This document shows, piece by piece, positions 3,599 to 62,748 of a DNA stretch of 64,000 bases. Source of the stretch: an uncultured bacterium. GTDB taxonomy: Bacteria; Babelota; Babeliae; Babelales; Babelaceae. The stretch lies in the NCBI GenBank assembly GCA_963717435.1, contig OY970332.1:768001-832000 (forward strand), read 5' to 3'. Every line of letters begins with the position of its first letter. Position 1 is the stretch's first letter. The translations under genes and the position numbers were made by a program. Below the pieces are notes generated by a model. The model worked only from the letters and a program-made list of their open reading frames with translations, was not told where the DNA came from and made no database searches.

Positions 3599-4774
3599 TT
3601 ATAAATTTTTATACAGATTAGCATGATCGCTAATCATTTTTGAATAATCAAAATCTGTTAAGTTTTCTTCGAAGTTTTTTAAACTATCATACAGTTTTCT
3701 GTTTGTGCTTATCTCAAGCATGCCATCAGCAAGTAGCTCCCATTTTTTTTGTGGATATAAATATCCATTTTTGCCATTAATTATGACATCAGATATTCCC
3801 CCGGTGTTATAAGACAAAACTGGAAGCTTAAGTAATCTCGCTTCGATAACCGCACATGGCAGCCCTTCCCAAAGTGAGCTTAATACAAAGCTATCCCAAT
3901 TTTTCATAAATTTAGCTACATCGTGTTGCCAGCTGTGCAAAATAACAACATCCTTCAGATTATATTCTTGAATTTTTTGTTCGATATCTTTTCTTAATAC
4001 CCCGTCGCCGATAATCTCTAATCTTATATTATTATTTTTTTGATAAGCACAGTTAAACGCTTCTATGAGATCTAACAGGTTTTTTTGTGGCTTGAAGCAT
4101 GAGATCGACCCGAATGTGAAGTTGGCGCCATCCCTCGATACATTTTTCTCCGTTTCACTACGAAAAACACTCGGGACGAGCGGGGTGCTGGCAAAATCTA
4201 CTAGAAACTTGTCAGAATCGACAGCGGCGCGTATTAGAGCATATTTTTTCTTGAAACCGGGGATAAGTTTATTTCCAGTTTTAATATCATGGGAAGAGAC
4301 ACAAACAAATTTTGTTGTTATCAGCCCAGTTAATAACTCCGGGATATATATCAAGAGCCATTTTAAATAATTTTGATGCTCATGAAAGCCGTAGCCATGA
4401 ACAGTGTGAACCCTGTTTTTTATTCCTGCAAATAGTGCTGCCCAGCGGCCAACTATACCAGCTTTGGTGCTATGCGTGTGAACTATAATATTGGGGTTAT
4501 TTTTTTTAATTTTTCTCAGCTCTTTAATTAAAATAAAAAAATTTTTTATTTCCAAAAAAATAGCTTTAAAAGAAATTTCTCTTTTAAAGCTATCCAATAA
4601 AATTATATTTTTGTCAGATTTGACACTATCACTTAAGAGTCCATCAGAGCCAGATATTAATATAGTCTCAAAGTTTTCTTTTCTTAAGCCATCAAGCAGA
4701 GCAAGACAAACTTTTTGCGCACCGCCAAGTTCAAGTTTTGTGATTATATAAACTACAGTTTGATTTTTTTGCAT
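3599..4774 (-). CDS. glycosyltransferase family 4 (GT-B), carrying an in-frame palindromic element in the interdomain linker
   Basis: GGAQ, HTHSTKAG, HTVHG and SLWEGLPCAVIEA motifs. Confidence 0.92.
   Translation of the reverse strand: MQKNQTVVYIITKLELGGAQKVCLALLDGLRKENFETILISGSDGLLSDSVKSDKNIILLDSFKREISFKAIFLEIKNFFILIKELRKIKKNNPNIIVHTHSTKAGIVGRWAALFAGIKNRVHTVHGYGFHEHQNYLKWLLIYIPELLTGLITTKFVCVSSHDIKTGNKLIPGFKKKYALIRAAVDSDKFLVDFASTPLVPSVFRSETEKNVSRDGANFTFGSISCFKPQKNLLDLIEAFNCAYQKNNNIRLEIIGDGVLRKDIEQKIQEYNLKDVVILHSWQHDVAKFMKNWDSFVLSSLWEGLPCAVIEARLLKLPVLSYNTGGISDVIINGKNGYLYPQKKWELLADGMLEISTNRKLYDSLKNFEENLTDFDYSKMISDHANLYKNL
4128..4184 (-). repeat. palindromic element copy 1 (in-frame in GT4 gene)
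   Basis: Minus strand reads CCGCTCGTCCCGAGTG-TTTTTCGTAGTGAAACGGAGAAAAA-TGTATCGAGGGATGG; encodes PLVPSVFRSETEKNVSRDG. Confidence 0.9.
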
Positions 4775-4820
4775 AGCACTCTACCACTTTTTTTTATTAC
4801 TCTTTTTTGTAAAAAATATT

Positions 4821-5777
4821 TTAAATATTAAAAACAAGCATCAACATAGTAGCACCGAAACAGTATACAGCAGAAGCGTCTATAAAGCCCTGTGTGAGTA
4901 TACTCGACTTTGAAATAAGAGAATAAAGTTCAGGTCTTTTTGCAAGTTGGTTGCACGCAGCAACGGCAGTTTTTCCTGAAGCGATTCCACAACCTAATGG
5001 CCCGATGCCCATTAAAAGTGCCATGGCCAAAAACACAAACGCGCTAATCGGTGTGATATTAAAATTTACAGTTGCTAAAATTGCGCTTGTTATTAGTGAG
5101 AATAAAACAGGAGTTTCGATCATCGCCTGGCTGATAAAAGTAAGAGAAAGAATTTTCGGGTAAGCCAATCTGTTATAGCTGATCCCGTCGTATGCGCTTT
5201 GCGCAAATTTGCTTATCCCAATTAATGGCCCAATAGAACCAAGGCCTATACAGAGCCCGCTAGAAAACAGTTTAACTGCGTCATGTATATTTGTTATAGA
5301 ATTTATTTTGCTTACAATTATTGCCGCCACAATAAATCCAAAAATAAACGAAGTTTGCAAAATCGATAAACTTAGTAGCATTAAGTTTGTTATTTTCTTG
5401 CTCAAAAATGGCTGTCTTGAAATAGCATAAATTGCTCTTTGGGCAGGTTTTACTGAAACCAAACTTGCTGTTAATCCTGTAAAAATTAATGCAGCTGCAA
5501 CGCCCAGTTCAGCAAAAATTGTATATATGTTTGCCGGATTTTTTAAAACAAATAAAAGCGCCATCGATAAAACCATACTTAATACCGCGCAGGTTTCAAG
5601 TAGGCCCATGGCAATTAAAGACAAGGTTCTTAAATCGTTTTTTGCAGCTGGCTGGATATTAATTGCATCAACAGTTGTTGTAGCAATTTCGCCCTGTCCT
5701 TTTGCGACGGCCCAAGAATTAACTATGAGTATAGATAAAATTATTAAGTAGTGAATTAACTGAAAATACTCTGTCAT
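4821..5777 (-). CDS. atpE: F0 ATP synthase subunit c, four fused c hairpins
   Basis: Four ~80-aa two-TM repeats with loops IQP/RQP/YNR/KRP and carboxylate positions E61, Q141, E221, D300; ATGA overlap with atpB. Confidence 0.88.
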   Translation of the reverse strand: MTEYFQLIHYLIILSILIVNSWAVAKGQGEIATTTVDAINIQPAAKNDLRTLSLIAMGLLETCAVLSMVLSMALLFVLKNPANIYTIFAELGVAAALIFTGLTASLVSVKPAQRAIYAISRQPFLSKKITNLMLLSLSILQTSFIFGFIVAAIIVSKINSITNIHDAVKLFSSGLCIGLGSIGPLIGISKFAQSAYDGISYNRLAYPKILSLTFISQAMIETPVLFSLITSAILATVNFNITPISAFVFLAMALLMGIGPLGCGIASGKTAVAACNQLAKRPELYSLISKSSILTQGFIDASAVYCFGATMLMLVFNI

Positions 5778-6499
5778 TTGGGCTCCTCTTGAACAAGTAA
5801 AGCTAAATTGGTTAACGAGATTATTGAGAACACAAATGATTGCAAAAAGCCCTCAAAGATTATAAAAAAAGCGGTAATTATAAACGGGATCCCAAAAATA
5901 GATGTGATTAAGTGCCCTATAACGGACCCTGAAACGGCTTTGTTATACATGGTCACAATAATCGCTCCGCCAAAGATATTACCAAACAATCTAAAAGAGA
6001 GTGACATTATTGTCGCCAGTTCCCCGATTATATTCAAAAATACCATGGGCGCAAATGGCGAAAAATAGTGGTGAATATAAGCATATAGCCCATTTTTCTT
6101 TATAGAAGCAATTTGGATATAAAGAAAAGTTATAATAGCAAGCGCCAGTGTAGTATTGAGGTCTTTTGTGGGTTCTTCAAGTTCAGGAATTAAAGCTATC
6201 CAGTTGCATGCCAGAATAAATAAAAAAATCGAAGTGATAAAACTAAAATAATTAAAAGAGAATTTGCCAACAGACTGCTGGATCATGGTCATGAAGTTTA
6301 TTACTATATTTTTTGTAATAAATCCCGCCACAGTCTCTTTTTTGTATAAAATAAGATACCTGCCCAAAATCCCCAGGGCAAGTAAAATTCCCATGGCGAT
6401 CCAGGTATTGATTAGTGTTTCACTGTTTAATATAGCAAATATGCTTTTTATATTTGCCAGTTGCCACTGGTGCGTCCCAAATATTTGGATGCCTTCCAC
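5774..6499 (-). CDS. atpB: F0 ATP synthase subunit a
   Basis: PTKDLNTTLALA, SLSFRLFGNIFGG (essential Arg) and FLQSFVF motifs. Confidence 0.95.
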   Translation of the reverse strand: MEGIQIFGTHQWQLANIKSIFAILNSETLINTWIAMGILLALGILGRYLILYKKETVAGFITKNIVINFMTMIQQSVGKFSFNYFSFITSIFLFILACNWIALIPELEEPTKDLNTTLALAIITFLYIQIASIKKNGLYAYIHHYFSPFAPMVFLNIIGELATIMSLSFRLFGNIFGGAIIVTMYNKAVSGSVIGHLITSIFGIPFIITAFFIIFEGFLQSFVFSIISLTNLALLVQEEPK

Positions 6500-6609
6500 G
6501 CGTAGCCTCTTTTTGATAAAGATTTAATCAGACTGAAAATTAATTTTTATTCTGATCCTAATTATAAGTTTATTTATTTTTCGACGCAACAAAACTGTTT
6601 AAATAATCT

Positions 6610-7983
6610 CTAAAATATCTTATCCATAAAGTAACTTATTATTCTCGAGCCAAATCTATATGGCGGGTATCTGAATGGCAGTTCAAATCTTCCGGACCTA
6701 ACTACGGACTTATAATTGGAAAAAGTCTCGAAGCTTGTCTTGCCATGATATCTGCCAAATCCACTTTGTCCAACCCCACCAAATGGCAGGTAAACTGAAC
6801 CCGCATGGGTTAAAGTGTCATTTATGCATATGGCACCGGAGCTTGTGTTGTTTATTATCTTGTCTTGAGCTTCTATATTTTCAGTAAAAATATAAATAGC
6901 CAGCGGCTTGGGGTTATTTTTAATATAATTTATAGCCTGATCTATATTTTTGTAACTTATTATTGGCAAAATGGGCCCAAAAATCTCACCATCAAGATTA
7001 GTTTTGATTATAGTGGGCGCGATATACAAATTTGATTTATTAGAATTTCCACCAAAAACTATTTCTGTGTTCTGGATAAAATTATTTAATCTATCAAAAT
7101 GCTGCTCGTTAATAATTTTGCCATAATCCGGGCTCAATTCTGAGTTTCTGCCAAAAAATTTTTTAATATATTTTTCAATTTCAGAAATAAGCTTTTCTTC
7201 AATATCTTCATGAACCAGAACATAATCTGGTGCTATGCAGGTCTGACCAGCGTTTAAAAATTTCCCCCAAGCTATTTTTTTGGCAGCTTTTTTAATATCA
7301 GCATCGGGTTCGACTACGCATGGGCTTTTTCCTCCAAGCTCTAACGTTAATGGCGTTAAATTTTCAGCAGCTGCGCGCATCACAATTTTGCCCACATTAC
7401 TGCTGCCCGTGAAAAATATATAGTCAAATTTTAAGCTTAATAGATTTTGTGCAACTTCATGATCCCCTTCAATTACGCAGACATAGTTTTCCTGAAAAGC
7501 TTCTTCTATAATTTTTTTTAATACTTTACTCGAATTTGCTGATATTTCTGACGGCTTTAAAATTACGCAGTTACCGGCAGCGATTGCGCCAATAACAGGA
7601 ATCAAAGACAAGGCAAAAGGGTAGTTCCATGGCGAGATCACTAAAACGAGTCCCAGCGGCTCTGGGGTTATGGAGCTTTTTGAACCAAAAAGTGAGCTGG
7701 GCGTTTTTACTTTTTGCGTACTTGCCCAATCGCAAATATTATCGATAGCGTGTTCTATCTCTTTTTTTATCTGATAGATTTCTGTGATATAACTTTCAAA
7801 ACTTGATTTTTTCAGATCAGAATTTAAAGCATTAAAAATCTCTTTTTTATATTTTTTTAAAACTTTTTTTAATCTCGTAAGATTCTCAACTCTGAATTCT
7901 ATGGGTTTTGTTCTGCCTGAGGCAAAAAACTCTTTCTGGCTGTTATATATATTTTCTATTTCTATATTCACAGATTCTCCCAA
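6610..7983 (-). CDS. NAD(P)-dependent aldehyde dehydrogenase (ALDH3-like)
   Basis: SPWNYP, KPSE, FFTGS, LELGGKSP, NAGQTCIAPDY, EIFGP and PFGGVGQSG motifs. Confidence 0.95.
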   Translation of the reverse strand: MGESVNIEIENIYNSQKEFFASGRTKPIEFRVENLTRLKKVLKKYKKEIFNALNSDLKKSSFESYITEIYQIKKEIEHAIDNICDWASTQKVKTPSSLFGSKSSITPEPLGLVLVISPWNYPFALSLIPVIGAIAAGNCVILKPSEISANSSKVLKKIIEEAFQENYVCVIEGDHEVAQNLLSLKFDYIFFTGSSNVGKIVMRAAAENLTPLTLELGGKSPCVVEPDADIKKAAKKIAWGKFLNAGQTCIAPDYVLVHEDIEEKLISEIEKYIKKFFGRNSELSPDYGKIINEQHFDRLNNFIQNTEIVFGGNSNKSNLYIAPTIIKTNLDGEIFGPILPIISYKNIDQAINYIKNNPKPLAIYIFTENIEAQDKIINNTSSGAICINDTLTHAGSVYLPFGGVGQSGFGRYHGKTSFETFSNYKSVVRSGRFELPFRYPPYRFGSRIISYFMDKIF

Positions 7984-8020
7984 CTTGTTTTTAATTTTTT
8001 TAATAGTATACGAAAAATAG

Positions 8021-8068
8021 AAAAACTAAAAATAGCCGGGGTTTTATTCCCAGCTATTTTTAGTTTTT
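8021..8068 (-). terminator. intrinsic terminator-like hairpin downstream of the folC-like gene
   Basis: AAAAACTAAAAATAGCCGGG...CCCAGCTATTTTTAGTTTTT inverted repeat 30 bp past the stop. Confidence 0.65.
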
Positions 8069-8098
8069 TAAAATTTAATTAAAAAATTTAAAATCTAG

Positions 8099-9520
8099 TT
8101 AAAATCTCTTGATACCTTTTTGAACCCAGTATTTATTAACAATAGATACTGAACCCGTGATAACAACAAGACCATATTTTTCATCAACAGATTTTTTCGC
8201 AATATCAAACGCTTCTTCGAAGTTCTTGCAAGATTTTGCTTTGATCTTCATAGCTTTCAAATCATTGGCAACTTGTTCAGTGTCCCACGATGAATTTTCA
8301 TTTGCGCTAACTAATCCATCTTCTGTTGGGCAAAGTAATAACTGACCAGAAGTCTTCTTGAAGAAATATCTTATTAGCTTTAAAAATTCTTCGTTATGCA
8401 TAGAATCTTTTGTTGCTGCCATAATAATGGTCAGCCCCTTAAGTGAACGTTGATAATGCATTAATCTAATACCAAGTAAAAGATTTTTTAATGCGTCAAC
8501 GTTACTAGCCGTATCAAGTAATATAGTCGGCTTTTCTTTATCAAGCACCTGGAACCTAGCAGGTAAATCTGTTACCGTTTCGTTCCAAAGTTGCTCAACT
8601 GTTCTTTTCGGATTTAGTTCTTGTTGTCTTTTTGCTTCCAAAGATGGACGGCCACGTGTTCCTTTTTGTTTTGAAAGTAAACTATCAGCAACGACAACTG
8701 TGTCTTTATTAAATATTTTTTCTACAAAAAGCTGAGCGATTCTTTCAGCTAGTGCTGCACAACGACCATGAAGTTGTTCAAACGGATAAGAAAGAGCAGC
8801 CAATTTTCTTATAGGCATCGCCCAATTTCCACCATTTGCAACCGTAAGATTGTGCATCATTTCAAGATGTTCTTTGTTTTGATCACCGGAAACCAGCCAA
8901 GTATCTTTTTTGACAATACCGGTCATAGATTTAATTGCCTGATTAAGTTCGTCAGCAGAAGTTTTTGTATCTTCTAATGTCGCTCTTGTAATTGCTGCAA
9001 CTTTTGCTTGGCAAATATTTGCTGCATCAAATTGTCCGCTATTAACTTCAAGTAGTGCAACATCGATCTTATTTTCTGCAAAATAAGAGATTGCCATCAT
9101 AGTTAATATTTCATATGAGCTTGATTCAATATTTTCAGCTTCAGCTGTGTTTATAACTTCGTTACCAATTTCAGCAAATACTTTATTTGATATTGTCTCG
9201 CCAGATAGAGAAATTCTTTCATTATATGTAAGAATATGTGGAGAGTAGAAAGCGCCAACTTTGAGACCTTCTGCTTTTAATAGTTTAGAAGCAAAATTTA
9301 GTGTTAAGCTCTTTCCATTTGTTCCTGCAACTAATACAGCTGGAACTTTTTGTGCCAACCCACCAAGAGCCGCATCCAATTTTTTCATTCTATCAAGAGT
9401 CTTTGAATCGGAATTTGTTGTCCAATGAGCGTCCAAATAGTCCACAACTTCATTGTATGTTCTTTGTTTGCCGATGTTCAGACCAGTTTTTGTGCCAGTC
9501 TGTTTGCGAATATCTATCAT
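8099..9520 (-). CDS. divergent FolC/Mur-ligase-family protein (folylpolyglutamate synthase-like)
   Basis: VAGTNGKS P-loop, YSPHILTYNERI, DVALLEV, PARFQ..ILLD and VVITGS; several canonical residues altered. Confidence 0.8.
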   Translation of the reverse strand: MIDIRKQTGTKTGLNIGKQRTYNEVVDYLDAHWTTNSDSKTLDRMKKLDAALGGLAQKVPAVLVAGTNGKSLTLNFASKLLKAEGLKVGAFYSPHILTYNERISLSGETISNKVFAEIGNEVINTAEAENIESSSYEILTMMAISYFAENKIDVALLEVNSGQFDAANICQAKVAAITRATLEDTKTSADELNQAIKSMTGIVKKDTWLVSGDQNKEHLEMMHNLTVANGGNWAMPIRKLAALSYPFEQLHGRCAALAERIAQLFVEKIFNKDTVVVADSLLSKQKGTRGRPSLEAKRQQELNPKRTVEQLWNETVTDLPARFQVLDKEKPTILLDTASNVDALKNLLLGIRLMHYQRSLKGLTIIMAATKDSMHNEEFLKLIRYFFKKTSGQLLLCPTEDGLVSANENSSWDTEQVANDLKAMKIKAKSCKNFEEAFDIAKKSVDEKYGLVVITGSVSIVNKYWVQKGIKRF

Positions 9521-9857
9521 GAAGTCATCTCCAATTAAAAAGATTACTAATATAAATTAATAGTAAAATTAGACCCATTTTTAAAATATGTCAAATAATA
9601 AATCAGAGCTTGAAATTTCGTTAATAAATTTTCAAATATTTCTTATTGTAACTAGGTTAAAAAATATTTAAAGATTAAATTTGTGCGCTATTTTGCCCCT
9701 TGGTTTCTATCTGTCATGTTTTGATAAAAATTTTATATTTGAAATGTTTAAATTATTTTTTTAACTTTTTTAAACTCATGTTCAAACTATTGCTTTCCAG
9801 GATCATGCTTGATGTAAGATGTTACTAAGGGACAAAAGGGTTAAGGGGAGTTTTTCT

Positions 9858-10967: not shown

Positions 10968-10970
10968 CTA

Positions 10971-11584: not shown

Positions 11585-11903
11585 AAAAGATAAACAGCTT
11601 ACAACTTATGAGAGGGTTATGGCCTCTTTGACTCCAAAAGAAAAAAAAGAATACGAACAAGAATATAAAGAATTTTTGATTTCTGAAATGTTGTTGGCAG
11701 CAATGGAACAAGACGATATTTCTGTCAGAAAATTGGCCAAGCTTGCCGGTGTTTCACCCACAGTAGTCCAAGGCGTTCGCTCAGGCGACAGAGAAAATAT
11801 AACTGTTCAAAGCTTTGTTAAAATATTGAAAGCCCTGGATTGTTCTCTAGTGGTAGAAAAAGGGGGACAAAGATTCCCTCTAGATCTGCCCAAAAATAAG
11901 TAA
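11568..11903 (+). CDS. XRE-type HTH antitoxin
   Basis: GGGAG RBS; ISVRKLAKLAGVSPTVVQGVRSG HTH; overlaps the toxin 3' end. Confidence 0.85.
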   Translation: MTKKIKKDKQLTTYERVMASLTPKEKKEYEQEYKEFLISEMLLAAMEQDDISVRKLAKLAGVSPTVVQGVRSGDRENITVQSFVKILKALDCSLVVEKGGQRFPLDLPKNK

Positions 11904-12647
11904 ATAATTTTTAAACAAGGCAAAGATTATAGCACCGAGAGATAAAAATATGCCAAATGGGAGAGCCGTCTCTCGTTTGGCATATCCTGTTGCAATTAAA
12001 GTTAAACCCAAGACAGAGCCGGTAAGTGAGCCGATAAATATGGACATAAATAGGCCATAAAGTCCCAAGAAACTGCCGATAAGCGCCGCAAGTTCAAGAT
12101 CGCCGTCACCCATGCCCTCAATATTTCTGTAATAATAAAAAAGCTTTTTGATTATCCAGAAAACTAAATAACCAGTTAGGCTCGCCAAAACAGACTCTAG
12201 TAAGCTTATTTCTAAGTAGCCAAGATAAGCAAAAATAAAACTTACCGGTAATAAATATAAAGTTACAAATCTGGATATCAACATAGAATCTAAGTCAGAT
12301 CTGATAGTTATAAGTAGCGCCGTAAAAAAGATAAAATAACTGGGCCAGAATTGGGGTTCGACAAAAAATATTAGTAGCTCAAAAGTTATTAAACTTAAAA
12401 TCTCTATAAATGGATATATGGGAGATATTTCTTTTTTGCAGCTGCGACATTTGCCGCGCAATATAAACCAAGAAATAACTGGTATAAGATCGTAGGGCGA
12501 AATACTTTTCTTGCACTTTGGGCAAAACGATCTAGGGATCGACAGGCTCTCACCACTGATTAGCCGGTAAGATAACATGTTAATAAAAGAGCCCCAACAT
12601 AAGAATATTGGGGCCAAAATTATTGCTAGATTAGTTAAGCTACACAC
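11880..12647 (-). CDS. pilD: prepilin peptidase (A24 family)
   Basis: GSFIN, RSFCPKC...RGKCRSC zinc motifs, GMGDGDLEL and LPFG. Confidence 0.93.
   Translation of the reverse strand: MCSLTNLAIILAPIFLCWGSFINMLSYRLISGESLSIPRSFCPKCKKSISPYDLIPVISWFILRGKCRSCKKEISPIYPFIEILSLITFELLIFFVEPQFWPSYFIFFTALLITIRSDLDSMLISRFVTLYLLPVSFIFAYLGYLEISLLESVLASLTGYLVFWIIKKLFYYYRNIEGMGDGDLELAALIGSFLGLYGLFMSIFIGSLTGSVLGLTLIATGYAKRETALPFGIFLSLGAIIFALFKNYLLIFGQI
11892..12012 (-). repeat. direct repeat, right copy (current prepilin peptidase 3' end)
   Basis: Matches 10971..11091. Confidence 0.9.
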
Positions 12648-12668: not shown

Positions 12669-12760
12669 ATCCCTCGATACATTTTTCTCAGCTTCGCTTT
12701 CAGCTTCCGACTTCGCCAAGGCTTCGACGGACGCGACGTCGGGCACTCGGGACGAGCGGG
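12669..12760 (-). repeat. palindromic element copy 2 with nested hairpin insert
   Basis: ATCCCTCGATAC...CACTCGGGACGAGCGGG ends; internal TCCGACTTCGCCAAGGCTTCGACGGACGCG. Confidence 0.9.
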
Positions 12761-12793: not shown

Positions 12794-13180
12794 TTAATCT
12801 TGATCGTCATAATCTTCAGGGGTTTCCTGTTTGACCTTATCAAGAAGATTTTCGATTCTCATCTGCTTTTCAAACTGCTCATCAAACTTGAATACCAAAT
12901 CAGGCGTGTAACGTGATTTTAGCCCAGATAGCGCTTTTCTTAAAGACGGCTTGTAAAGTTTTAAAGTTTCAAGCTGCTCATGAAAAACTTCTTTGCCATC
13001 AGGGGTGTAAAAGTACACGGAACAGAAACCCTTGTCAGCCGAAAGTTCAACTCTTGTTATCGTAAAGCCCCTAAGTTTTGGGTCATCCATAGATGCCTTC
13101 ATAAACAAACTCGAGATCTCACGAAATAAGAGCTTCTCTTTTTGGGCGATTTTGATAGTTCTTGATGGTCCTGAATGCAT
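12794..13180 (-). CDS. rbfA: ribosome-binding factor A
   Basis: DPKLRGFTITRVELSADK and RYTPDLVFKFD motifs. Confidence 0.92.
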   Translation of the reverse strand: MHSGPSRTIKIAQKEKLLFREISSLFMKASMDDPKLRGFTITRVELSADKGFCSVYFYTPDGKEVFHEQLETLKLYKPSLRKALSGLKSRYTPDLVFKFDEQFEKQMRIENLLDKVKQETPEDYDDQD

Positions 13181-47458: not shown

Positions 47459-49537
47459 GTGATTTTAAATAAAATTTATAACAAATTTAAGATTATTGGA
47501 TTAAAGCGAACGTGTGAGCTTGTAAAAAACAAGTTTGCCAGTTCGCTTTTTTTGTTCTTAAACAGAAGACGGGCAAAAATAACCCGTTATATGGGCAAAA
47601 CTGCAAATTACAGTTGGCCGGAAGTCTCGAGTAAATTAAAATTTGATAAAGATTTTGAAAAATTCTGGGAAAATTTTTGCAACAAAAAATCTTATATTAA
47701 TTTTAATAATTTTTTAGAAACTTTAATAACTGATTATAATCTTGATAATCAGGCAAGCATCCCAGATAAAAACTGTGTTAAACTTCTTCAAGAATTCTCT
47801 TCCCCGCTCGTCCCGAGTGTTCTTCGTAGCTTTAGCGTAGAAGAATGTATCGAGGGATCGAGTAAACCCAAGTGGCACTATGATCTTAACGGGTTTTATT
47901 TTGACGCAAATATTTTTTATAAAGACATAAAAATACAAGCTAATATTGGGGAAAATATCGGGCCGGATATCAGAACACTGTGGGAAAAAAACAGATTTAA
48001 TAATATTTTTTTTCTGGGCATAAATAATTCACCGGACAAATTTTTCAGTGACATAAAAGACTGGATAGATAAGAACCCATATTTATATGGGCCCAATTGG
48101 GTTTGCCCGATGGAAGTAGGAATCAGGTCGGTTAACTGGGTTTTGGGCTTTATGTTTTTTAAAGACATAAAATTTGGTGAGCCAAAACAGAAATTTGAGT
48201 TTTGGGAAAAATTTATCTGCTCACTTTATGACCACATGATTTTTATAGAACAAAATTGGGAAATTTATGATACACGAACAAATAACCATTATTTGTCAGA
48301 TCTACTGGGGTATTATTACTTATTAATATTTTTTGATAGTTTAGGCGCAAAAAATTTAAAATCTAAAATTATTTGGGTAAAAAAAGAGTTTTTAAAAGAG
48401 CTTGATAAGCAGATATTACCCGACGGCTCTAGTTACGAGGGCTCGACGGCTTATCATAATTTAATTTGTGAAATAGTTTATTATTTTAAAATTTTAAGTG
48501 ATCAAGAAGAGTTAAAAAATAATTATAATAAATTACTCGACCAAAAATTTAAAAATATGTGCCAATTTGCAAGTTATTTTTATCTTCAGGACCCTAAAGT
48601 TAAAATACCGAAGCAACTTACGCCGCTCGTCCCGAGTGTTCTACGAAGCTCAAAGAGCGAAGTAGAATGTATCGAGGGATGGCGGGGGCAAAATTTTGTG
48701 ACAATAGGCGATAACGACTCGGGCAAAATTGTCGCGGGCCTGCCTGAAAAATTTTTTAAAGTTACTAAATTTGATAACTTGCCCGAAATTGCGCACTTTA
48801 AGGATTTTGGAGTATCTGTTTATAAATCACCGAATATACACATAACTTTGCGCCATCATGCATATAATAAATTACAACCAAGTGCTCATTTCCATAACGA
48901 TTTTTTAAGTATCACGTTAGCAATAAACAATATTCCGGTTATTATCGATCCTGGTTCTTATGTTTATACCGCTTCAAGTTATTGGCGAAATTATTTTCGC
49001 AGCGCTGAATCCCATAATGGGTTTTATATTAAAAATTTAGAACCTGTCAAACTCGATAATTACAATCTTTTTGCTCCCGATATTCCCGAAAAAATTCTAG
49101 AAAATAATAGTCTAAAAAATAATAATGGCATTAAAAAATCGATAGTGTCTAGTCACGAGCTTTATAAAAATCTGGGCCTAAGAGCGGCAAGAAAAATTGA
49201 ATTAGAAAATTTAAATAAAAATATAATTGTCACAGATTCCTGGGATAGTATTTGGGAGAATATTAATAAAACAAACTTAGAAAATCTTGAGAATCTTACA
49301 ACTGTCTGGAGCTTGATTTTGCACCCAGATATTAAAGCAATAAAGCGGACAGATAAGTCTTGGGATCTTTTTTACAACAATATTAAACTTGCGAACATAA
49401 GCTCCAAAGATCTTGATTTTGAAGCAGATTCCTCATGGGCAAGTTTTGTTTATGGCGAAAAAATCGCTGCAACCAGATTAGCCGCGCAAAGCAGCTTGAA
49501 ATTAAAAAATTATGGCTGGCAGATAACTATTTTTTAA
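47459..49537 (+). CDS. heparinase II/III-family (alginate-lyase-like) protein with two in-frame palindromic insertions
   Basis: WEKNRF, NWVCPMEVGIR..NW, NNHY, EGSTAYH, IGDNDSG, HFHND, IDPGSYVY and FRS..SHN motifs. Confidence 0.88.
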   Translation: MILNKIYNKFKIIGLKRTCELVKNKFASSLFLFLNRRRAKITRYMGKTANYSWPEVSSKLKFDKDFEKFWENFCNKKSYINFNNFLETLITDYNLDNQASIPDKNCVKLLQEFSSPLVPSVLRSFSVEECIEGSSKPKWHYDLNGFYFDANIFYKDIKIQANIGENIGPDIRTLWEKNRFNNIFFLGINNSPDKFFSDIKDWIDKNPYLYGPNWVCPMEVGIRSVNWVLGFMFFKDIKFGEPKQKFEFWEKFICSLYDHMIFIEQNWEIYDTRTNNHYLSDLLGYYYLLIFFDSLGAKNLKSKIIWVKKEFLKELDKQILPDGSSYEGSTAYHNLICEIVYYFKILSDQEELKNNYNKLLDQKFKNMCQFASYFYLQDPKVKIPKQLTPLVPSVLRSSKSEVECIEGWRGQNFVTIGDNDSGKIVAGLPEKFFKVTKFDNLPEIAHFKDFGVSVYKSPNIHITLRHHAYNKLQPSAHFHNDFLSITLAINNIPVIIDPGSYVYTASSYWRNYFRSAESHNGFYIKNLEPVKLDNYNLFAPDIPEKILENNSLKNNNGIKKSIVSSHELYKNLGLRAARKIELENLNKNIIVTDSWDSIWENINKTNLENLENLTTVWSLILHPDIKAIKRTDKSWDLFYNNIKLANISSKDLDFEADSSWASFVYGEKIAATRLAAQSSLKLKNYGWQITIF
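47802..47858 (+). repeat. palindromic element copy 6 (in-frame)
   Basis: CCGCTCGTCCCGAGTG-TTCTTCGTAGCTTTAGCGTAGAAGAA-TGTATCGAGGGAT; encodes PLVPSVLRSFSVEECIEG. Confidence 0.92.
48623..48682 (+). repeat. palindromic element copy 7 (in-frame)
   Basis: CCGCTCGTCCCGAGTG-TTCTACGAAGCTCAAAGAGCGAAGTAGAA-TGTATCGAGGGATGG; encodes PLVPSVLRSSKSEVECIEGW. Confidence 0.92.
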
Positions 49538-56639: not shown

Positions 56640-58040
56640 ATGAAAAAACCTTTATTTTTAAGTTATATTTCGGGAGTTCAGGACCATCTTGAACAAGGTC
56701 AAAGTTATCCAAAAATATTAAAATATTTCGTTCCTGAACTAGTTACCGCAACAGTATTTTTATTCTGTACGTCGATATTTGATAGTTATTTTATAGCCCA
56801 TCTTAAATCTACTTCTTTGACCGCAACGCAGGGGGTCACAACTTCTTTGTTGCATGCGATTATCAAACTGTCTGAGGGGTTATTGGTCGGGGCCGTTGTT
56901 ATTTGCGGTCAGTATAACGGGATTCAAGACTACAAAAAAGTTGGTAAAGCTCTGTCTAACGTTTTTTGGCTAACGGTAATTTTTGGCGCGACTATCGGGA
57001 GCTTTTTATATTTTTGTGCTTATTATATTTATTATTTTTATGGGGTTACTCCAAAAATGATAACCCTGGGCATGCCATTATTAAAACTTAGAGCTATAAG
57101 TATATTCTTGATGTGCATATTTTTCGGGTTTGTAGGTTTTCTGCGTGGAATTAAGAACACTTATGTCCCGATGGTAATCTCTATCGTGGGCGGTATATTC
57201 TTTGTTTTTATAGATTATGCACTTATTTTTGGTTGTTATGGTCTGCCTGAATGCGGAATTTTAGGTTCTGCCATGGCGTCGATAATACAGTATGTTGTTA
57301 TGCTAATTGCTGTGTTTTTGTATATTATTTTTGATAAAGAAAATCGAAAATTTGGAATCGAATTTTTTTCTCGTCCATCACTTAGCATGATGAAAAGTTT
57401 ATTACTTGTAAGCTGGCCCGTGATGATAGATAAAGTTACTTTGTCTCTGGCCCATGTCTGGCTGGGATTCAGACTTGCTCCTATGGGCAAATACGCGCTT
57501 GCAAGTTTTAGTGCCATAAAAGATATTGAGCGAGTTGCAATTCTGCCCGCTTTGGCCTGCGCCCAGGTGATAACATTTTTGGTCAGCAACGACTATAAGA
57601 TTCAAAACTGGGAGAGCATAAAAGTTAATATAAAAAAAGTGATTTTTATAGCAACCATACTGGTCTGCGCAATACTACTGGCAATCTCTTATAACCCAAC
57701 TTATTTTGTAAGATTTTTCGATCATAAGGGGTCGTTTACAGAGTTATCTGTCAAAGTCCTTCCTATAATCAGTGTACTTGTGTTTTTTGATTTGCTACAA
57801 TTGATTCTGTCCGGCTCTTTACGAGGCGCGGCTGACGTTAAATATGTGATGAATGTAAGGCTCGGGGTTTGTATACTATTTTTCATGCCACTTTCTTATT
57901 TTCTTTCAGGTATTAACTGGTCCAGTCCTATAACAAATTTTTTAGCTGTTTATGGGACACTTTATATTTCAAATGCCATAATGTCTTTATTTTATATACA
58001 GAGATTTCGTGGCGGTGGCTGGAAAAAACAGACTGTTTAA
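56640..58040 (+). CDS. MATE family efflux transporter
   Basis: About 12 TM; GFLRGIKNT..PM, G..G.A.AS and GSLRGAAD motifs. Confidence 0.9.
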   Translation: MKKPLFLSYISGVQDHLEQGQSYPKILKYFVPELVTATVFLFCTSIFDSYFIAHLKSTSLTATQGVTTSLLHAIIKLSEGLLVGAVVICGQYNGIQDYKKVGKALSNVFWLTVIFGATIGSFLYFCAYYIYYFYGVTPKMITLGMPLLKLRAISIFLMCIFFGFVGFLRGIKNTYVPMVISIVGGIFFVFIDYALIFGCYGLPECGILGSAMASIIQYVVMLIAVFLYIIFDKENRKFGIEFFSRPSLSMMKSLLLVSWPVMIDKVTLSLAHVWLGFRLAPMGKYALASFSAIKDIERVAILPALACAQVITFLVSNDYKIQNWESIKVNIKKVIFIATILVCAILLAISYNPTYFVRFFDHKGSFTELSVKVLPIISVLVFFDLLQLILSGSLRGAADVKYVMNVRLGVCILFFMPLSYFLSGINWSSPITNFLAVYGTLYISNAIMSLFYIQRFRGGGWKKQTV

Positions 58041-58068
58041 TTGATATGTTTTTGAAAGAATTAAATCG

Positions 58069-58362
58069 ATGTCATTAATTACAAAAGATGAAATTTTAAA
58101 GCTAGCTAAAATTTCACAAATAGCGATAACTGAACAAGAGATTGAAAAAGTTCAGAACGAGATTGAGCCGATTTTACAATATGCTTCTATTTTAAAAGAT
58201 GTTGCGCAGGGTAAAAAAACTGATGGTTTTGAATTCAAAAACAAAAATGTAACTCGCCCTGATGTTATTGCAAGAACAGATTCTGAGATTATCATCTCAC
58301 GTGCACCACTTGCACAGGATAACTTCTTTGTAGTGCCGGCTATAATAAAACAAAATGAGTAA
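58069..58362 (+). CDS. gatC: Asp/Glu-tRNA amidotransferase subunit C
   Basis: ITKDEILKLAKIS, NVTRPD and FFVVPAII; directly upstream of gatA. Confidence 0.92.
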   Translation: MSLITKDEILKLAKISQIAITEQEIEKVQNEIEPILQYASILKDVAQGKKTDGFEFKNKNVTRPDVIARTDSEIIISRAPLAQDNFFVVPAIIKQNE

Positions 58363-58374
58363 TTTGGGGCGTAT

Positions 58375-59817
58375 ATGAACAACTTAGCATTTAAAAGTAT
58401 AAAAGAGCTTAGAGAAAAATTAGTAAAAAAAGAGATAAGTTCCAAAGAGTTATTGGACCTGTTTATTTCAAGATTTAAAAAATTTGATAAGCAGCTAAAT
58501 TCTGCTATCGAAATATTTCCAACAGATTCGATAAAATTTGAAAACGAAACGGGAGCCCTTTCAGGTATTCCAGGCCTAATAAAAGATAATATTTGCCAGC
58601 AAGATAGAATAACATCTGCAAGTTCAAAAATATTAAGTAATTACAGCGCTTCTTACGACGCAACCGTAACAAAAAGAATTAAGAATTCAGGGGCCGTTTC
58701 TATTGGCCGCGCAAATTGCGATGAGTTTGCAATGGGAAGCTCAAATGAAACTTCTTATTATGGAAAAGTTTATAATCCATGGGATATTTCACGAGCACCC
58801 GGTGGTTCAAGCGGTGGCTCAGCAGCAGCAGTCGCGGCTGGTTTGGTTCCGTGGTCATTTGGATCAGAAACAGGTGGTTCAATAAGATTGCCGGCGATGT
58901 TTTGTGGTATTGTTGGTTCCAAGCCAACTTATGGTCTTGTTTCTCGTTATGGACTACTTGCTTACGGTTCATCACTGGATCAAGTTGGTGTCTTTACAAG
59001 AACTGTTTACGATAACGCTCTGGTTCTTTCTCAAATAGCGGGGCAAGACAAGCAAGATTCAACAACTTTGTCTGTATCTGCGCAGGATTACACAAAAAAT
59101 TTAACTGGTAAAATTAAATCGGGCATGACCATAGCAGTTATCGATAATGCCCTTAATGCTGAGGGTATGGAACCAGAAATAGCACAAATATTGGAATCAG
59201 CTTTAAAAGATTTAGAAAAACTTGGCGCTAAAATTAAAAGAATTAAGCTGCCAACTATGGAATATGGCGCAGCGGTTTATTTTATGATAAGCCGAGCTGA
59301 AGCAGCATCAAATCTATCAAGATTTGACGGTGTAAAATATGGTTATCGCAGCAAGAACGCAGAGACACTTTCGGATATGTATTCAAATACAAGAGAAGAG
59401 GGTTTTGGGGACGTTGTTAAGTTGCGAATATTAATCGGTAACTATGTTCTTTCTGTTGGACACGCCGATGCTTTTTATGAAAGTGCCCGTACTGTTCAGG
59501 CTATGATGCGACAAGAATTTTTGGAGGCATTCAAAGAATGTGATCTTTTGTTTGCACCTGTCGCCCCAATTCCTGCATTTAAATTTGGTGCATTTAAGAA
59601 TAACTTAGCTTTAGACTTAATGGATTACTTTACATGTCCTGCTAATTTGATCGGAATTCCGGCGCTTTCAGTTCCGTGTGGGTTCACAAAAGAGAATCTT
59701 CCTGTTGGGTTCCAGCTTATGGGGCCGCATCTGTCTGAAGATTTAATTTTCCAGACCGCGCACGCTTATGAACTTGTTAACGAATGGTATAATAAGATCC
59801 CGCAAGACTTTGTTTAA
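58375..59817 (+). CDS. gatA: Asp/Glu-tRNA amidotransferase subunit A
   Basis: [44 protein letters not shown] and LPVGFQL motifs. Confidence 0.97.
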
Positions 59818-59854
59818 GTTTTATAAAATTAAACTACAGAGTAATTCCCAACAG

Positions 59855-59899
59855 CCGCTCGCCCCGAGTGAAATTCCGTAGGAATTTAGTATCGAGGGG
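59855..59899 (+). repeat. palindromic element copy 8 (short)
   Basis: CCGCTCGCCCCGAGTG-AAATTCCGTAGGAATTT-AGTATCGAGGGG. Confidence 0.88.
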
Positions 59900-59939
59900 T
59901 CGGCATAGCGTGAGATTCGTAATAAATCTAATATAATTA

Positions 59940-59969
59940 ATAAACCCGGAAAGAAAAACCCGGGTTTAT
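59940..59969 (+). terminator. terminator-like hairpin after gatA
   Basis: ATAAACCCGG...CCGGGTTTAT. Confidence 0.5.
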
Positions 59970-60068
59970 CTGTTTGAAAATTTAATAAGTCTATTATTGA
60001 TTTCTATTTGAAAAATATAATATCTTGATCTTGAGTAACTGTCGTGTGCAAAAACGTTAGGGGGAGTT

Positions 60069-60899
60069 GTGCAAGACAAGACAAGCTTACTAACAAGATT
60101 TTTTTTGATATTTACTATTTTTTTCTCTGCTCAACCAGAAGGGGACAATCGGGAGAGCAGGTGCAAAAAAATATTTACGCCAAAATATTTCAATAGAGGG
60201 CTTCATACAGTCTTGGATGATGCCTTTGGTGTTGTGGGCAATTTATTTTGTAGGGACACCCTAAAAATAATTACAGGCGCCCTGCCAATCTATCTACTTT
60301 CAAGAATGCAAGACGAGCGGATCCAAAGATCTTTTTTTTACGACAGAAAGCATCACAAGAATTTGTGCGAGCACCACTCTTTCTTTTATCATCTTGCAGA
60401 TGAAGGGGTAGCGATTCCATTTAGTGCTGCTTTAGGCGCATTTTTGTTTTCAAAAAATTGTGATTTGCATACCACTTCACGTGTTTTTTTAATATCACTA
60501 CCAATTACATGGGCGACACGATCAGCTATGAAGGAGATAAAAGTTGATTGCTGCTTGCGACCTTGGAACCAACATTTTAGTAGCAAACACAGGTCTTTCG
60601 GAGGGTTCCCTTCTGGGCATATGCTTGAAATGGCATACATGACAACTCTATATGGAATTAGATTTGGACCAAAATGGGGCGTGCCGCTTGGGCTCTATAG
60701 CGCGTTTATATTTTCTGAATTTTTAGTTTGTAACAGGCACTATTTATCACAACTTGTTGCAGGTACCGCACTTGGCGTTGCATTTGCATATTCTGCTAAC
60801 AAAACTATTGAAAGGGACTTAAAGAAAAACAGCTGGGATTTTGATGTTTCTTGCGATCGCTGCGGCAACCCAAACTTAAAAGTCTGTTATAAGTTTTAA
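60069..60899 (+). CDS. PAP2 family phosphatase
   Basis: K.....RP, FPSGH and RHYLSQLVAG motifs. Confidence 0.88.
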   Translation: MQDKTSLLTRFFLIFTIFFSAQPEGDNRESRCKKIFTPKYFNRGLHTVLDDAFGVVGNLFCRDTLKIITGALPIYLLSRMQDERIQRSFFYDRKHHKNLCEHHSFFYHLADEGVAIPFSAALGAFLFSKNCDLHTTSRVFLISLPITWATRSAMKEIKVDCCLRPWNQHFSSKHRSFGGFPSGHMLEMAYMTTLYGIRFGPKWGVPLGLYSAFIFSEFLVCNRHYLSQLVAGTALGVAFAYSANKTIERDLKKNSWDFDVSCDRCGNPNLKVCYKF

Positions 60900-60953
60900 G
60901 CTTGTTTTGTGCTTATCTGACCCAGTTCTAATGCGATACTGCTAATTTGCAGA

Positions 60954-61430
60954 TTAAGTATTGTGCTTTTCTTCAAACATATTGGTCGTAAAGCTGCTCG
61001 TCAAAATACCAACTTTAATTTTAATATTTTTGCTATCGGGTGAAATTTTACAATTTCCGGGAACATATTTGCCATGTTCGCCAGATATACTATCTAATTT
61101 AGTTAGAGAGAATGGTTTCTTTGAAATTGTGCCAGTTAAACTTGAAAAAAATTTGTCTTCTGAATAATTGATAAGATAAACATATATATCAGGAAACTCT
61201 TGGCTATCAGCAACTACGGCAATCGCGTATTTTCCATTTGGGGCCTTCACTATTTCTATGACGTTATTAAGTACTGTTGTTTTTGACCATAATTTAAGTT
61301 CGTTTTGGTCAGTTGAAAATAAAACGTGATCTTCGGTTTTAGATATAATATTTTCAGGATATTCCATAGAGAAAATATTATGCTGCGCAAGATTAAATAT
61401 AACTAAGATTTGTAAAAATAATTTGCTCAT
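60954..61430 (-). CDS. secreted hypothetical protein (paralog of 61439..61936)
   Basis: Signal NIFS|MEY; LKLW...PNGKYAIA...CKISPD. Confidence 0.78.
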   Translation of the reverse strand: MSKLFLQILVIFNLAQHNIFSMEYPENIISKTEDHVLFSTDQNELKLWSKTTVLNNVIEIVKAPNGKYAIAVVADSQEFPDIYVYLINYSEDKFFSSLTGTISKKPFSLTKLDSISGEHGKYVPGNCKISPDSKNIKIKVGILTSSFTTNMFEEKHNT

Positions 61431-61438
61431 GTTCTTCC

Positions 61439-61936
61439 CTACTCGATTATGTCTACGCTAAACGTTGTCCTAAAGTATCCAAAAGTCTTTACCTTGATAA
61501 TTCTGCCATTCTCACTTATCTTGCAACTACCCAAATCATACCAACCTATAGTGTATATTAAGTTTGTTGAAAATTCTTCGACATCCAATATACCTGGATG
61601 AAATCGTGAGTGCATTTTACATTTTGCAAAGCTGATAAGATAAAACAATGCTTTGGGATATTTTATATCTTTTTCATCAATAGTTATGGCAATGGCATAT
61701 TTTTTATTTGGTGATTCTATTAATTCTTTAACTTCTCCAATTAAATTTGATACGTGCCATAATTTCAAATTATTGTCGTCATCCAAAAATAAGATATTTT
61801 TGATCCCATTTTTTTCTATTACAATTCTCTTTTCGTTTTTCTTGTCCTCTTCTTGATCTTGAGCAGCATCCATAGAAAAAATGTTTAAGTTTGTAAGATT
61901 TAATAAAAATAATGCTTGTAAAAATAATTTGTTCAT
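61439..61936 (-). CDS. secreted hypothetical protein (paralog of 60954..61430)
   Basis: Signal NIFS|MDA; LKLW...PNKKYAIA...CKISEN. Confidence 0.78.
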   Translation of the reverse strand: MNKLFLQALFLLNLTNLNIFSMDAAQDQEEDKKNEKRIVIEKNGIKNILFLDDDNNLKLWHVSNLIGEVKELIESPNKKYAIAITIDEKDIKYPKALFYLISFAKCKMHSRFHPGILDVEEFSTNLIYTIGWYDLGSCKISENGRIIKVKTFGYFRTTFSVDIIE

Positions 61937-62067
61937 GATCTTCCCAATTAATTTAATAATTAATAAATAAACATAAAATTAAGATTTTAAGTAATTTTAT
62001 CCTGTGCTATTTTATACATGAATTTTAAATTTATAAACAAAAAAAATGATTAAAATTGGGTGCGCCT

Positions 62068-62574
62068 ATGACAAAACAAGAGCGATTTGACAGAAACTTT
62101 TTACGCGTGGCTTGGACAACTGCGTTGAGCTTGTCAAAAGACCCACTAACGCAAGTTGGCGCGGTGATAGTATCAGAAGATTCACGACAAGTAAGTCTTG
62201 GTTATAACGGATTTTCTGCAGGAGTTGCCGAGCCTGAATCAAGATGGGCGCGGCCAGAAAAATATTCTTGGGTAATTCATGCAGAGATGAACGCTGTCAT
62301 GAACACTCCATTTGATACAAAAGGTTGTACGCTTTATTGCACGCACCAGCCATGTCACAGATGCATAGTTCACTTGGTTAATACCGGAATTAAAAAAATA
62401 GTTTATTATACGCCAAAGTCTGACGAGAGACCTGATATATTTCAAGAGATTTCTATGCTTTTTGATCAAGTTTATTGCATAGATTATGACGAAGTTGTTG
62501 AGAATCTAAAATCTATGTATCAAGTTGATCCTGTTAGATTTGTTGGGAAGATTTCCAGAGAAAAAAATATATAA
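62068..62574 (+). CDS. dCMP deaminase (ComEB-like)
   Basis: SKDP.TQVGA, GYNG, HAEMNA and PCHRC zinc motifs. Confidence 0.92.
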   Translation: MTKQERFDRNFLRVAWTTALSLSKDPLTQVGAVIVSEDSRQVSLGYNGFSAGVAEPESRWARPEKYSWVIHAEMNAVMNTPFDTKGCTLYCTHQPCHRCIVHLVNTGIKKIVYYTPKSDERPDIFQEISMLFDQVYCIDYDEVVENLKSMYQVDPVRFVGKISREKNI

Positions 62575-62579
62575 ACCCA

Positions 62580-62636
62580 CCGCTCGTCCCGAGTGTTTTT
62601 CGTAGCGCAAGCGAAGAAAAACGTATCGAGGGATGG
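62580..62636 (+). repeat. palindromic element copy 9
   Basis: CCGCTCGTCCCGAGTG-TTTTTCGTAGCGCAAGCGAAGAAAAA-CGTATCGAGGGATGG. Confidence 0.92.
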
Positions 62637-62693
62637 CGGTAAACACTAATATTATATAATAATTTATATATTTTTATAATTGCAAAAAATGCT

Positions 62694-62748
62694 CATCCCT
62701 CGATACAATCACCTTCACTACGTTTCGGTGATCACTCGGGACGAGCGG
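62694..62748 (-). repeat. palindromic element copy 10
   Basis: Minus strand reads CCGCTCGTCCCGAGTG-ATCACCGAAACGTAGTGAAGGTGAT-TGTATCGAGGGATG. Confidence 0.92.

Follow-up and report, generated by a model that had tools for sequence, protein, structure and literature searches.

Introduction

The closest described relative of the system reported here is the Ssn family of GIY-YIG nucleases, introduced in 2025 as the first site-specific nucleases that act on single-stranded DNA (ssDNA) only (Chenal et al. 2025, Nat Commun, PMC11893778). In that account, SsnA of Neisseria meningitidis is a single-domain protein of 94 aa (CDD cd10448) whose gene is flanked by NTS/dRS3 hairpins, themselves present in hundreds of genomic copies; SsnA binds the hairpin, cuts only the ssDNA beside it, and does not act on RNA, and Ssn homologs of other species cut their own hairpin variants. 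The NTS-ssnA-NTS arrangement was likened to an insertion sequence (IS) by its authors. Here, we analyzed a window of 64,000 nucleotides (positions 768001–832000 of one 1,198,203-bp contig with 34.6% GC, from a Dependentiae/TM6 genome labeled G000, the other genomes compared being labeled G001, G103, and so on), in which an initial annotation had singled out a dispersed palindromic element of the form CCGCTCG-N4-GAGTG-hairpin-(T)GTATCGA-N4'-T, where N4 and N4' are complementary 4-mers. Elsewhere in G000, an inverted pair of these elements brackets the gene of a 94-aa GIY-YIG nuclease, and this gene bracket is found in many genomes and in three phyla. Our reading, to which we give a probability of roughly 0.7, is that the elements are gene-less (solo, paired, or nested) copies of the hairpin ends of a tiny IS-like unit encoding only this nuclease, of Ssn/UPF0213 (prokaryotic Slx1-like) type, which would bind the fold, cut beside it, and thereby underlie its spread.

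A GIY-YIG Nuclease Gene Bracketed by Inverted Hairpins

The search for a GIY-YIG gene flanked by copies, which the initial annotation had proposed, succeeded in G000 at a distance from the window, within which, as that annotation had remarked, no partner or mobilizer gene lies. The likely partner sits 234 kb downstream of the window and is a single-domain GIY-YIG open reading frame (ORF) of 94 aa (G000:1066108-1066389), preceded, across a 29-nt gap, by a hairpin at 1066027-1066078 (+) and followed, across a 22-nt gap, by an inverted hairpin at 1066412-1066466 (-). It came to light among the ORFs that hold elements, one of which proved to be a hairpin with the small GIY-YIG gene behind it. One such unit of ~440 bp, composed of a hairpin, the nuclease gene, and an inverted hairpin, is present in G000, versus ~110 hairpins. 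The protein matches the Pfam GIY-YIG domain over residues 4–75 (E=1e-16) and no other domain, NCBIfam holds no family for it, and the columns of the GIY/YIG, Arg, His, and Glu residues are conserved across 32 homologs of 90–110 aa. Among solved structures, its best matches are the UPF0213 proteins 1ZG2 and 1YWL (E ~1e-14), both of which an earlier survey assigns to the Slx1-like GIY-YIG domains that stand alone in prokaryotes (Dunin-Horkawicz et al. 2006, PMC1564403). With Slx1 and the prokaryotic Slx1-like proteins it shares a minimal GIY-YIG domain; unlike eukaryotic Slx1, it has neither a RING domain nor an Slx4 partner, and the fusions found here look like by-products of unit insertion.

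The 94-aa gene is the only close copy in G000. Homologs of 55–67% identity are found in many Dependentiae genomes, often as several diverged copies, some of them with stops. We surveyed 31 loci with homologs of at least 57% identity in other Dependentiae genomes, using a generalized hairpin (N4-GAG...TCGA-N4') whose chance rate is ~30 per strand per 1.2 Mb. Hairpins stand on both sides at 20 of these 31 loci (upstream in gene orientation, downstream inverted), upstream only at 4, downstream only at 4, and on neither side at 3, some of the one-sided or empty loci being, by eye or by model, cases of variant hairpins or of cuts by contig ends. At loci with distant GIY-YIG genes (<42% identity), a bracket hairpin was found in 0/6. 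The same N4 is present at both ends in 18 of the 20 two-sided units. Hairpin types are moreover paralog-specific within G259, G260, G011, G190, and G041, the two ends of each unit being nearly identical; such types coexisting in one genome would be a desirable resource for mining new ssDNA cutting specificities. Variant short forms (N4-GAGCYTGTCGA-N4' or N4-GAGC-GNA-GTCGA-N4') are encountered at gene loci, as are other 5′ boxes (CGTGCA, CAGGCA) and a GATGG/GAATGGA type, and these variants explain why some genomes with several copies of the nuclease gene lack matches to the exact pattern. Outside the phylum, a bracket surrounds a 53%-identical gene in a metagenome-assembled genome (MAG) of a 68% GC Pseudomonadota (G005), a short-form bracket surrounds a 53%-identical homolog on a Sphingomonas parapaucimobilis plasmid, and Methylobacterium bullatum has a variant bracket with other boxes and the opposite hairpin orientation. 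Searches of phage and plasmid proteins returned homologs of at most 53% identity only.

Some units also touch neighboring genes. In G005 (locus L138, G005:C14:120405-123677, ~1436–1846), the GIY-YIG ORF continues in frame into a SpoU/TrmH-like RNA methyltransferase, forming a 375-aa open frame, and translating the downstream inverted hairpin gives the linker peptide (...TRDER...); on the S. parapaucimobilis plasmid, the GIY-YIG and SpoU/TrmH-like genes are adjacent, with a 4-base overlap. The 2006 survey mentions a GIY-YIG-TrmH fusion as well as an HsdR gene into which a GIY-YIG domain was "very recently inserted" (Dunin-Horkawicz et al. 2006). Since whole units can fuse to neighboring genes, such events offer an explanation for the GIY-YIG "domain fusions" noted at that time, and the GIY-YIG-TrmH "fusion" of Erythrobacter may be a by-product of unit insertion. 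As a separate observation, a second small GIY-YIG ORF of G000 (G000:C1:1022982-1023275; ~80 aa, 39% identical) has no hairpin within 3 kb and possibly represents another Ssn/UPF0213-type lineage.

Conservation, Covariation, and Fold of the Hairpin

The genome G000 holds 103 exact 5′ boxes and 111 full copies by a relaxed pattern, and a covariance model built from 21 copies yields 116 matches at E<=0.01. Among the 111 copies, CGCTCG and GAGTG are jointly exact in 99 and GTATCGA is exact in 109, whereas N4 and N4' are perfect complements in 99 copies versus a single mismatch in the remaining 12. Seven N4 types are found (TCCC 55, CCCT 26, TGGT 10, CCCC 4, TCCT 2, TACT 1, TGCC 1). Conservation extends to two flanking bases on the 5′ side (C, C) and to five to six on the 3′ side (T, then G/C-G-C/G-G), and since it drops to background beyond them, the unit is ~60–65 nt long. 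That the family is selected for its structure, as the initial annotation had argued from the window, is borne out by very strong stem covariation in copies from many genomes. In a model-fitted alignment of 132 matches, 124 of them distinct, that were drawn from the window and other genomes, are related to one another, and have their N4 columns anchored by invariant boxes, standard pairs occupy 97.3% of the cells, versus 66.8% after shuffling and 41–59% with slid partners; 10 of 11 pairs are altered on both sides, and the observed covariation was reached in 0 of 500 shuffles.

As for the fold itself, the 5′ CCGCTCG box may pair with the 3′ flank T-G/C-G-C/G-G as an outer stem, in one of several registers, and we read the conserved GAG...TCGA junction as putative G·A, A·G, and G-C pairs. 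The variable inner stem is frequently closed by a C-GNA-G loop. One hairpin type has GAA...TTGA instead of GAG...TCGA; this compensatory replacement of G-C by A-T speaks for a G-C pair at that junction position, beside G·A and A·G. At two loci of G259 (L150 and L151, G259:C1 ~231.6 kb and ~1102.9 kb), the short-form hairpins read GAACTTGTTGA, versus GAGYTTGTCGA in other types; the change there is two-sided (G-C to A-T) at the conserved junction, and these units carry their own nuclease paralog.

Comparison with Ssn and Proposed Mechanism

The likeness to Ssn concerns the single-domain 94-aa GIY-YIG gene with an inverted hairpin copy at each end, the abundance of the same hairpin without the gene (tens to hundreds of copies, often in inverted pairs), the conserved, unpaired tags that flank the covarying stem, and a patchy, phylum-crossing distribution enriched in host-associated bacteria (Chenal et al. 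2025). Because the architecture is the same, we file the G000 system as one of the Ssn kind; it matches this nuclease/hairpin-repeat kind with a distinct hairpin class, the assignment being made by architecture and protein size rather than by cd10448 placement. The kind of system is not new, since the nuclease-plus-hairpin arrangement was already in print in 2025. The class of hairpin differs from the published one by its CCGCTCG box, by an additional 4-bp enclosing stem, by its GAG(TG) and (GTA)TCGA tags, and by the missing HGTC tag. In addition, ~30% of the G000 copies are inside ORFs, and Dependentiae are not reported as carriers in the paper, whose table includes one genome of the phylum, Ca. 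Babela massiliensis, with 0 SRM and no homolog (Chenal et al. 2025). In the supplementary text of that paper that was searched, neither CGCTCG nor the short-form string is present, and GTATCGA and its reverse complement occur there once each, by chance inside primer oligos.

The present system therefore adds a hairpin class of different architecture that the published search pattern misses, so that pattern-based surveys undercount such systems. In this regard, S. parapaucimobilis (0.76-fold) and M. bullatum (0.88-fold) show no SRM enrichment in the paper's table and are nevertheless scored there with a cd10448-type protein (Supplementary Data 4 of Chenal et al. 2025), yet they carry hairpins of the related class described above. 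It also adds a phylum, the protist-parasitic Dependentiae, with bursts of ~90 copies per Mb.

Mechanistically, we infer from the analogy with SsnA that the nuclease would bind the hairpin, cleave ssDNA, and drive the copying of hairpins through cleavage. The hairpin would fold in one DNA strand (outer box/flank stem, N4/N4' stem, GAG...TCGA junction, and variable stem); the nuclease, as SsnA does, would bind the folded strand while the DNA is single-stranded, that is, during replication, repair, or uptake, and would cut next to the fold; repair or rejoining of the cuts could then copy or move hairpins. Hairpins acting as single-stranded nucleic acid, as initially suggested for the window, would fit Ssn, the closest known system. 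The enzyme could be a transposase, a homing-type nuclease, or a tool domesticated by the host. A more ambitious version, which we regard as somewhat doubtful, holds that the hairpin-GIY-YIG-hairpin unit is an autonomous ~430-bp transposon whose sole protein is the 94-aa ssDNA nuclease, that the N4 stem with the tandem G·A sets the cut site, and that solo hairpins are the smallest mobilizable form. If this were true, the transposition chemistry would be one not described for prokaryotic IS elements, the joint diversification of nuclease paralogs and hairpin types would make up a natural library of site-specific ssDNA nucleases, and solo hairpins, each an imperfect palindrome with two similar ends, would explain ~20-aa in-frame insertions in essential genes.

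With regard to the hypothesis that the nuclease underlies the spread of the hairpins, the two co-occur across the 261 Dependentiae genomes (both 38, hairpin only 19, close homolog at E<=1e-20 only 40, neither 164; odds ratio 8.2), in a hand tally of exact-pattern hairpins over related genomes that are not independent, and of the 12 genomes holding 15 copies or more, 11 have the gene, the exception being G103. Several observations nonetheless weigh against this reading. G103 (55 copies) and the Myxococcota MAG G001 (17 copies) have no close homolog (best E=4.5e-4, 39% identity), and thus copies can persist, or spread, without the gene. Conversely, 40 genomes have the gene and no exact-pattern hairpin (at least 4 of them, G007, G011, G022, and G028, with variant boxes). 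The hairpins also depart from the published ones, as 0/111 copies fit the SRM consensus HGTCWYN(0-2)YYVSBRHN(0-5)WNVSBRGN(0-2)RNCYNB, whose single match in G000 is at chance level (shuffles give 1–2). Nearest-neighbor DNA folding, for its part, is a modest improvement over shuffles (z -0.5 to -3.4), so that the case for structure rests on covariation and not on energy. Finally, the role published for Neisseria is a modulation of transformation and not transposition (Chenal et al. 2025).

These facts give some room to another route, in which the hairpins would be spread by host recombination or replication at hairpins, or by an unknown factor, the GIY-YIG gene being a secondary parasite or a domesticated user that homes between hairpin pairs or cuts for a host function, as proposed for Neisseria transformation. 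Besides the hairpin-rich genomes devoid of a close gene copy and the transformation phenotype of the Ssn paper, the ratio of 1 gene to ~110 hairpins in G000 and the gene-less convergent pairs that share the geometry of the bracket are in line with it. We nevertheless consider this route unlikely, as it sits poorly with the nearly identical, paralog-specific unit ends, with hairpin types and nuclease lineages that travel together across phyla, and with the searches for an alternative mobilizer, which found none and in particular no Y1 transposase in G000.

Copies in the Window

Within the window, CGCTCG-N4-GAGTG occurs 12 times, versus a mean of 0.08 expected (100 dinucleotide-preserving shuffles; shuffle maximum 3). 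All of the 10 loci and 12 copies reported initially are present, within 1–3 bases of the positions first given, and reading them retrieved the N4/N4' pairs TCCC/GGGA, CCCT/AGGG, CCCC/GGGG, and TGGT/ACCA together with the inner stems, as well as the announced GC richness (0.52–0.58 versus 0.346 for the genome). The copies are as follows, with scores in bits of the covariance model where given.

4131..4182 (-): solo copy of the TCCC type, sense and in frame within the group-1 glycosyltransferase ORF 3599-4774 (-), in the stretch separating the two Pfam domains (64.7 bits)
12670..12758 (-): TCCC-type copy whose inner hairpin is expanded, between the prepilin-peptidase-like ORF 11880-12647 (-) and rbfA 12794-13180 (-) (40.4 bits)
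32148..32231 (-): another TCCC-type copy whose inner hairpin is expanded, between the convergent ORFs 31218-32141 (+) and gltX-like 32277-33731 (-) (49.4 bits)
42348..42448 (-): outer TGGT-type element of a nested composite, with an inverted CCCT-type element, 42377-42426 (+), inside its hairpin
47323..47425 (-): outer TGGT-type element of a second nested composite, with an inner CCCT-type element, 47352-47403 (+), between metG 45357-47300 (+) and the heparinase II/III-like ORF
47805..47857 (+): solo copy of the TCCC type, sense and in frame near residue 115 of the heparinase II/III-like ORF 47459-49537 (+) (64.6 bits)
48624..48679 (+): second solo copy of the TCCC type in ORF 47459-49537, sense and in frame near residue 388, in the stretch separating the two Pfam domains (65.4 bits)
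59856..59899 (+): short-hairpin element, CCCC/GGGG, with a C-GTA-G triloop, between the amidase ORF 58375-59817 (+) and the PAP2 ORF 60069-60899 (+) (59.4 bits)
62581-62633 (+) and 62696-62747 (-): convergent gene-less pair around an AT-rich spacer of 62 nt, neighbored by a cytidine-deaminase-like ORF (+) and by tatD (-)

The geometry of the convergent pair at 62581..62747 is the same as that of the pair bracketing the GIY-YIG gene elsewhere in G000. The nested TGGT/CCCT composite is found in at least 4 copies in G000 (the window locus at 42348 and G000 positions 44208, 815425, which is the second window composite, and 1119584), and the composites are themselves copied as units.

Insertions in Genes and Strand Orientation

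The position of the copies relative to genes was established with crude gene calls that take the longest ORFs without overlap and yield 1122 genes over 87.5% of G000. By these calls, 33 of the 111 copies (~30%) lie wholly within ORFs, 21 in sense and 12 in antisense (binomial p=0.16), 2 overlap an ORF end, and 76 are intergenic, between convergent (29), divergent (11), or co-oriented (36) gene pairs; those between co-oriented genes are 18 in sense and 18 in antisense (p=1.0). The in-ORF copies use all three frames and both orientations and add ~18–25 residues each. Their hosts, read from translations, the Pfam scan having covered the window ORFs, include RecR, MurB (two copies), MurD, MurE, MnmG, GlmM, glucose-6-phosphate isomerase, transketolase, MiaA, and a class-I aminoacyl-tRNA synthetase (two copies), and antisense copies too are located inside essential genes.

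That these are insertions is visible in RecR (G000:C1:105597-106298), with which 39 of 40 family relatives align in two pieces, skipping residues ~135–167; in an alignment with nine relatives, the 34-residue insertion is unique to G000, and it is absent from 39/39 matched relatives. MnmG likewise has ~25 extra residues at the element compared with E. coli MnmG, the boundaries of such insertions, drawn from protein alignments, being precise only to ~3 residues. Taken together, these cases are clear evidence of hairpins landing in frame in essential genes, and the surviving in-gene copies would be those that keep the frame open, disruptive ones having presumably been purged. The RecR insertion is, with its 34 aa (102 nt), ~37 nt longer than one hairpin unit, and one element does not fully account for its length; the extra AT-rich stretch upstream of the RecR box may be a decayed second copy.

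From a functional perspective, the sense-strand bias suggested by the initial annotation stood in the window, where the five simple copies are all in sense, and did not extend to the family as a whole (21:12 inside ORFs, 18:18 between co-oriented genes). Because the genome-wide counts show no bias, we regard the 5/5 of the window as a small-sample effect. This bears on the possibility that the elements are structured RNAs acting in transcripts, as a small ribozyme, a terminator or stabilizer, or a protein-binding motif whose GA junction resembles a kink-turn. Tandem G·A pairs beside a stem do resemble known RNA motifs, and the invariant boxes, the stems covarying across phyla, the five sense copies of the window, and the excess of intergenic copies between convergent (29) over divergent (11) pairs could all be expressions of such a function. 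Such a role is however very unlikely in view of the overall counts of 39 sense versus 30 antisense copies, with no genome-wide strand bias, of the antisense copies inside essential genes, of the lack of any Rfam match even at E<=10, of the inverted pairs that flank a DNA nuclease gene, and of the reported inaction of SsnA on RNA (Chenal et al. 2025). In the Rfam search (4227 covariance models), 0 matches were obtained in the window at the gathering score and nothing on the elements at E<=10 in 47300-48800, and a tRNA scan of the window found none. The K-turn, sarcin-ricin, and ribozyme readings of the junction were dropped because of the missing strand bias and the DNA nuclease partner.

No target-site duplication was detected in the 111 copies at any offset, direct repeats of at least 4 nt being found in at most 4–6 copies; direct repeats of 2 and 3 nt reach 7–20 of the 111 copies, lengths at which chance rates are high. 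This lack of duplication, along with the insertion in both orientations and all three frames in genes and with the C-GNA-G loops, fits a hairpin acting at the DNA level rather than an RNA.

Distribution among Genomes

The exact hairpin pattern was detected in 57 of 261 genomes of the phylum Dependentiae, the reversed-pattern control giving 0 in all, and its counts are patchy, a single genus spanning 0 to 63 copies. Bursts stand out in G000 (93), G258 (63), G254 (59), G103 (55), G256 (47), G259 (39), and G155 (29). The dispersed, mobile behavior put forward initially is thus corroborated, both by this patchiness among relatives and by the RecR insertion missing from relatives, and we regard the copies as dispersed selfish DNA. 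A congeneric empty-site comparison (G258 versus G259, G257, G254, and G255) revealed whole clusters present or absent, with intergenic DNA too diverged for exact ends; insertions come and go between relatives.

Outside the phylum, the TCCC type with full boxes is found in two Myxococcota MAGs, a Solimonas MAG, and a 68% GC Pseudomonadota MAG, and the stems of these Myxococcota, Solimonas, and Pseudomonadota copies covary to GC-rich sequences. Among IMG/VR viral contigs, 38 matches to the box pattern were obtained, 0 of them with complementary N4, and there is no sign of a phage vector; as none has complementary 4-mers, these are chance matches and a useful negative control. Our literature search found no published link between Dependentiae and such hairpin repeats. 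One of the compared genomes, the MAG G002 (= G075; locus L046, G075:C98:40505 = G002:C98:40505), is labeled Candidatus Saccharimonadales in its record and is placed among Dependentiae, so that label and placement disagree.

In the Myxococcota MAG G001 (loci L029-L045), the 17 copies are arranged as convergent pairs of a TCCC-type and a TGGT-type element, and these pairs sit in a ~190-bp repeat that is itself bounded by outer inverted ends (CCCCAGTTTT...AAAACTGGGG). Copies within a 190-bp unit with outer inverted ends are what speaks for ordinary miniature inverted-repeat transposable elements of a DDE transposon, to be read as double-stranded terminal inverted repeats. Yet such elements are a highly improbable source of the family, for the compensatory changes keep intra-strand pairing, target-site duplications are wanting (the 4–6 of 111 copies being the maximum at any offset), and no transposase gene was found beside the copies at the five single- or low-copy loci examined in other genomes, where the neighbors are unrelated housekeeping genes.

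Relationship to REP, REPIN, and Rickettsia Palindromic Elements

REP/REPIN-RAYT systems were reportedly described by Nunvar in 2010 and by Bertels and Rainey in 2011, and the palindromic elements of Rickettsia, said to have been presented by Ogata in 2000, are reportedly in-frame insertions in protein genes. With REP/REPIN-RAYT, the G000 family shares a single-copy enzyme gene between inverted hairpin repeats, an amplification as singlets and inverted doublets, and a presumed action on ssDNA; it differs in having a GIY-YIG nuclease instead of a Y1 HUH transposase, in lacking a GTAG tag, and in having many copies inside genes. Our literature search found no published link of GIY-YIG to RAYT or REPIN. 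The initial annotation had envisaged REP/RAYT as a model for the enzyme, which did not hold up, since no Y1 (PF01797) transposase was found in G000 at E<=1.

More generally, hairpin repeats that often form inverted doublets, in a phylum where Y1_Tnp genes are common (94/261 genomes), could suggest elements of the REP/REPIN type, or derived from IS200/IS605, whose ssDNA hairpins would be the substrate of a Y1 (HUH) transposase that moves them. There is hardly any likelihood in this, given the missing PF01797 match in G000, the presence of a Y1 gene in only 5 of 9 genomes with at least 20 copies versus 36% overall, and the absence of a terminal GTAG tag. Nor is there a lagging-strand bias, as 58 copies are in leading versus 53 in lagging orientation (p=0.70), with an origin near 499 kb and a terminus near 1067 kb of the contig placed from the GC skew of G000. 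Where an IS200-like element is at hand, in G258, its end hairpins (CCCTGGC.../GGGGGC...) are unrelated to the CGCTCG family. This element of 574 bp with a Y1 transposase is present in three copies that are 99.8–100% identical, at L104 419-992 (G003/G258:C1:574419-574992) and at ~369.1 kb and ~1166.6 kb of G258:C1.

The likeness to the Rickettsia palindromic elements (RPE) is that of palindromic repeats standing in frame in essential protein genes of a reduced intracellular bacterium. In a published classification, dRS3 (CGTC-1 type) and two RPE families belong to the CGTC-tagged REPs, which "lack a dedicated transposase" and are defined by a CGTC tag, an 8–9 bp stem starting with AT, and a CCA tail (Di Nocera 2013, PMC3733652). 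The tags and stem rules of these REPs are unlike those of the G000 family. The dRS3 of Neisseria was later tied to Ssn (Chenal et al. 2025). The nuclease described here provides a candidate enzyme for palindromic repeats of this transposase-less kind.

A look at window positions 34221-37226 and at the contig as a whole shows that G000 has BamA, along with a heparinase II/III-like protein and a prepilin peptidase of type IV.

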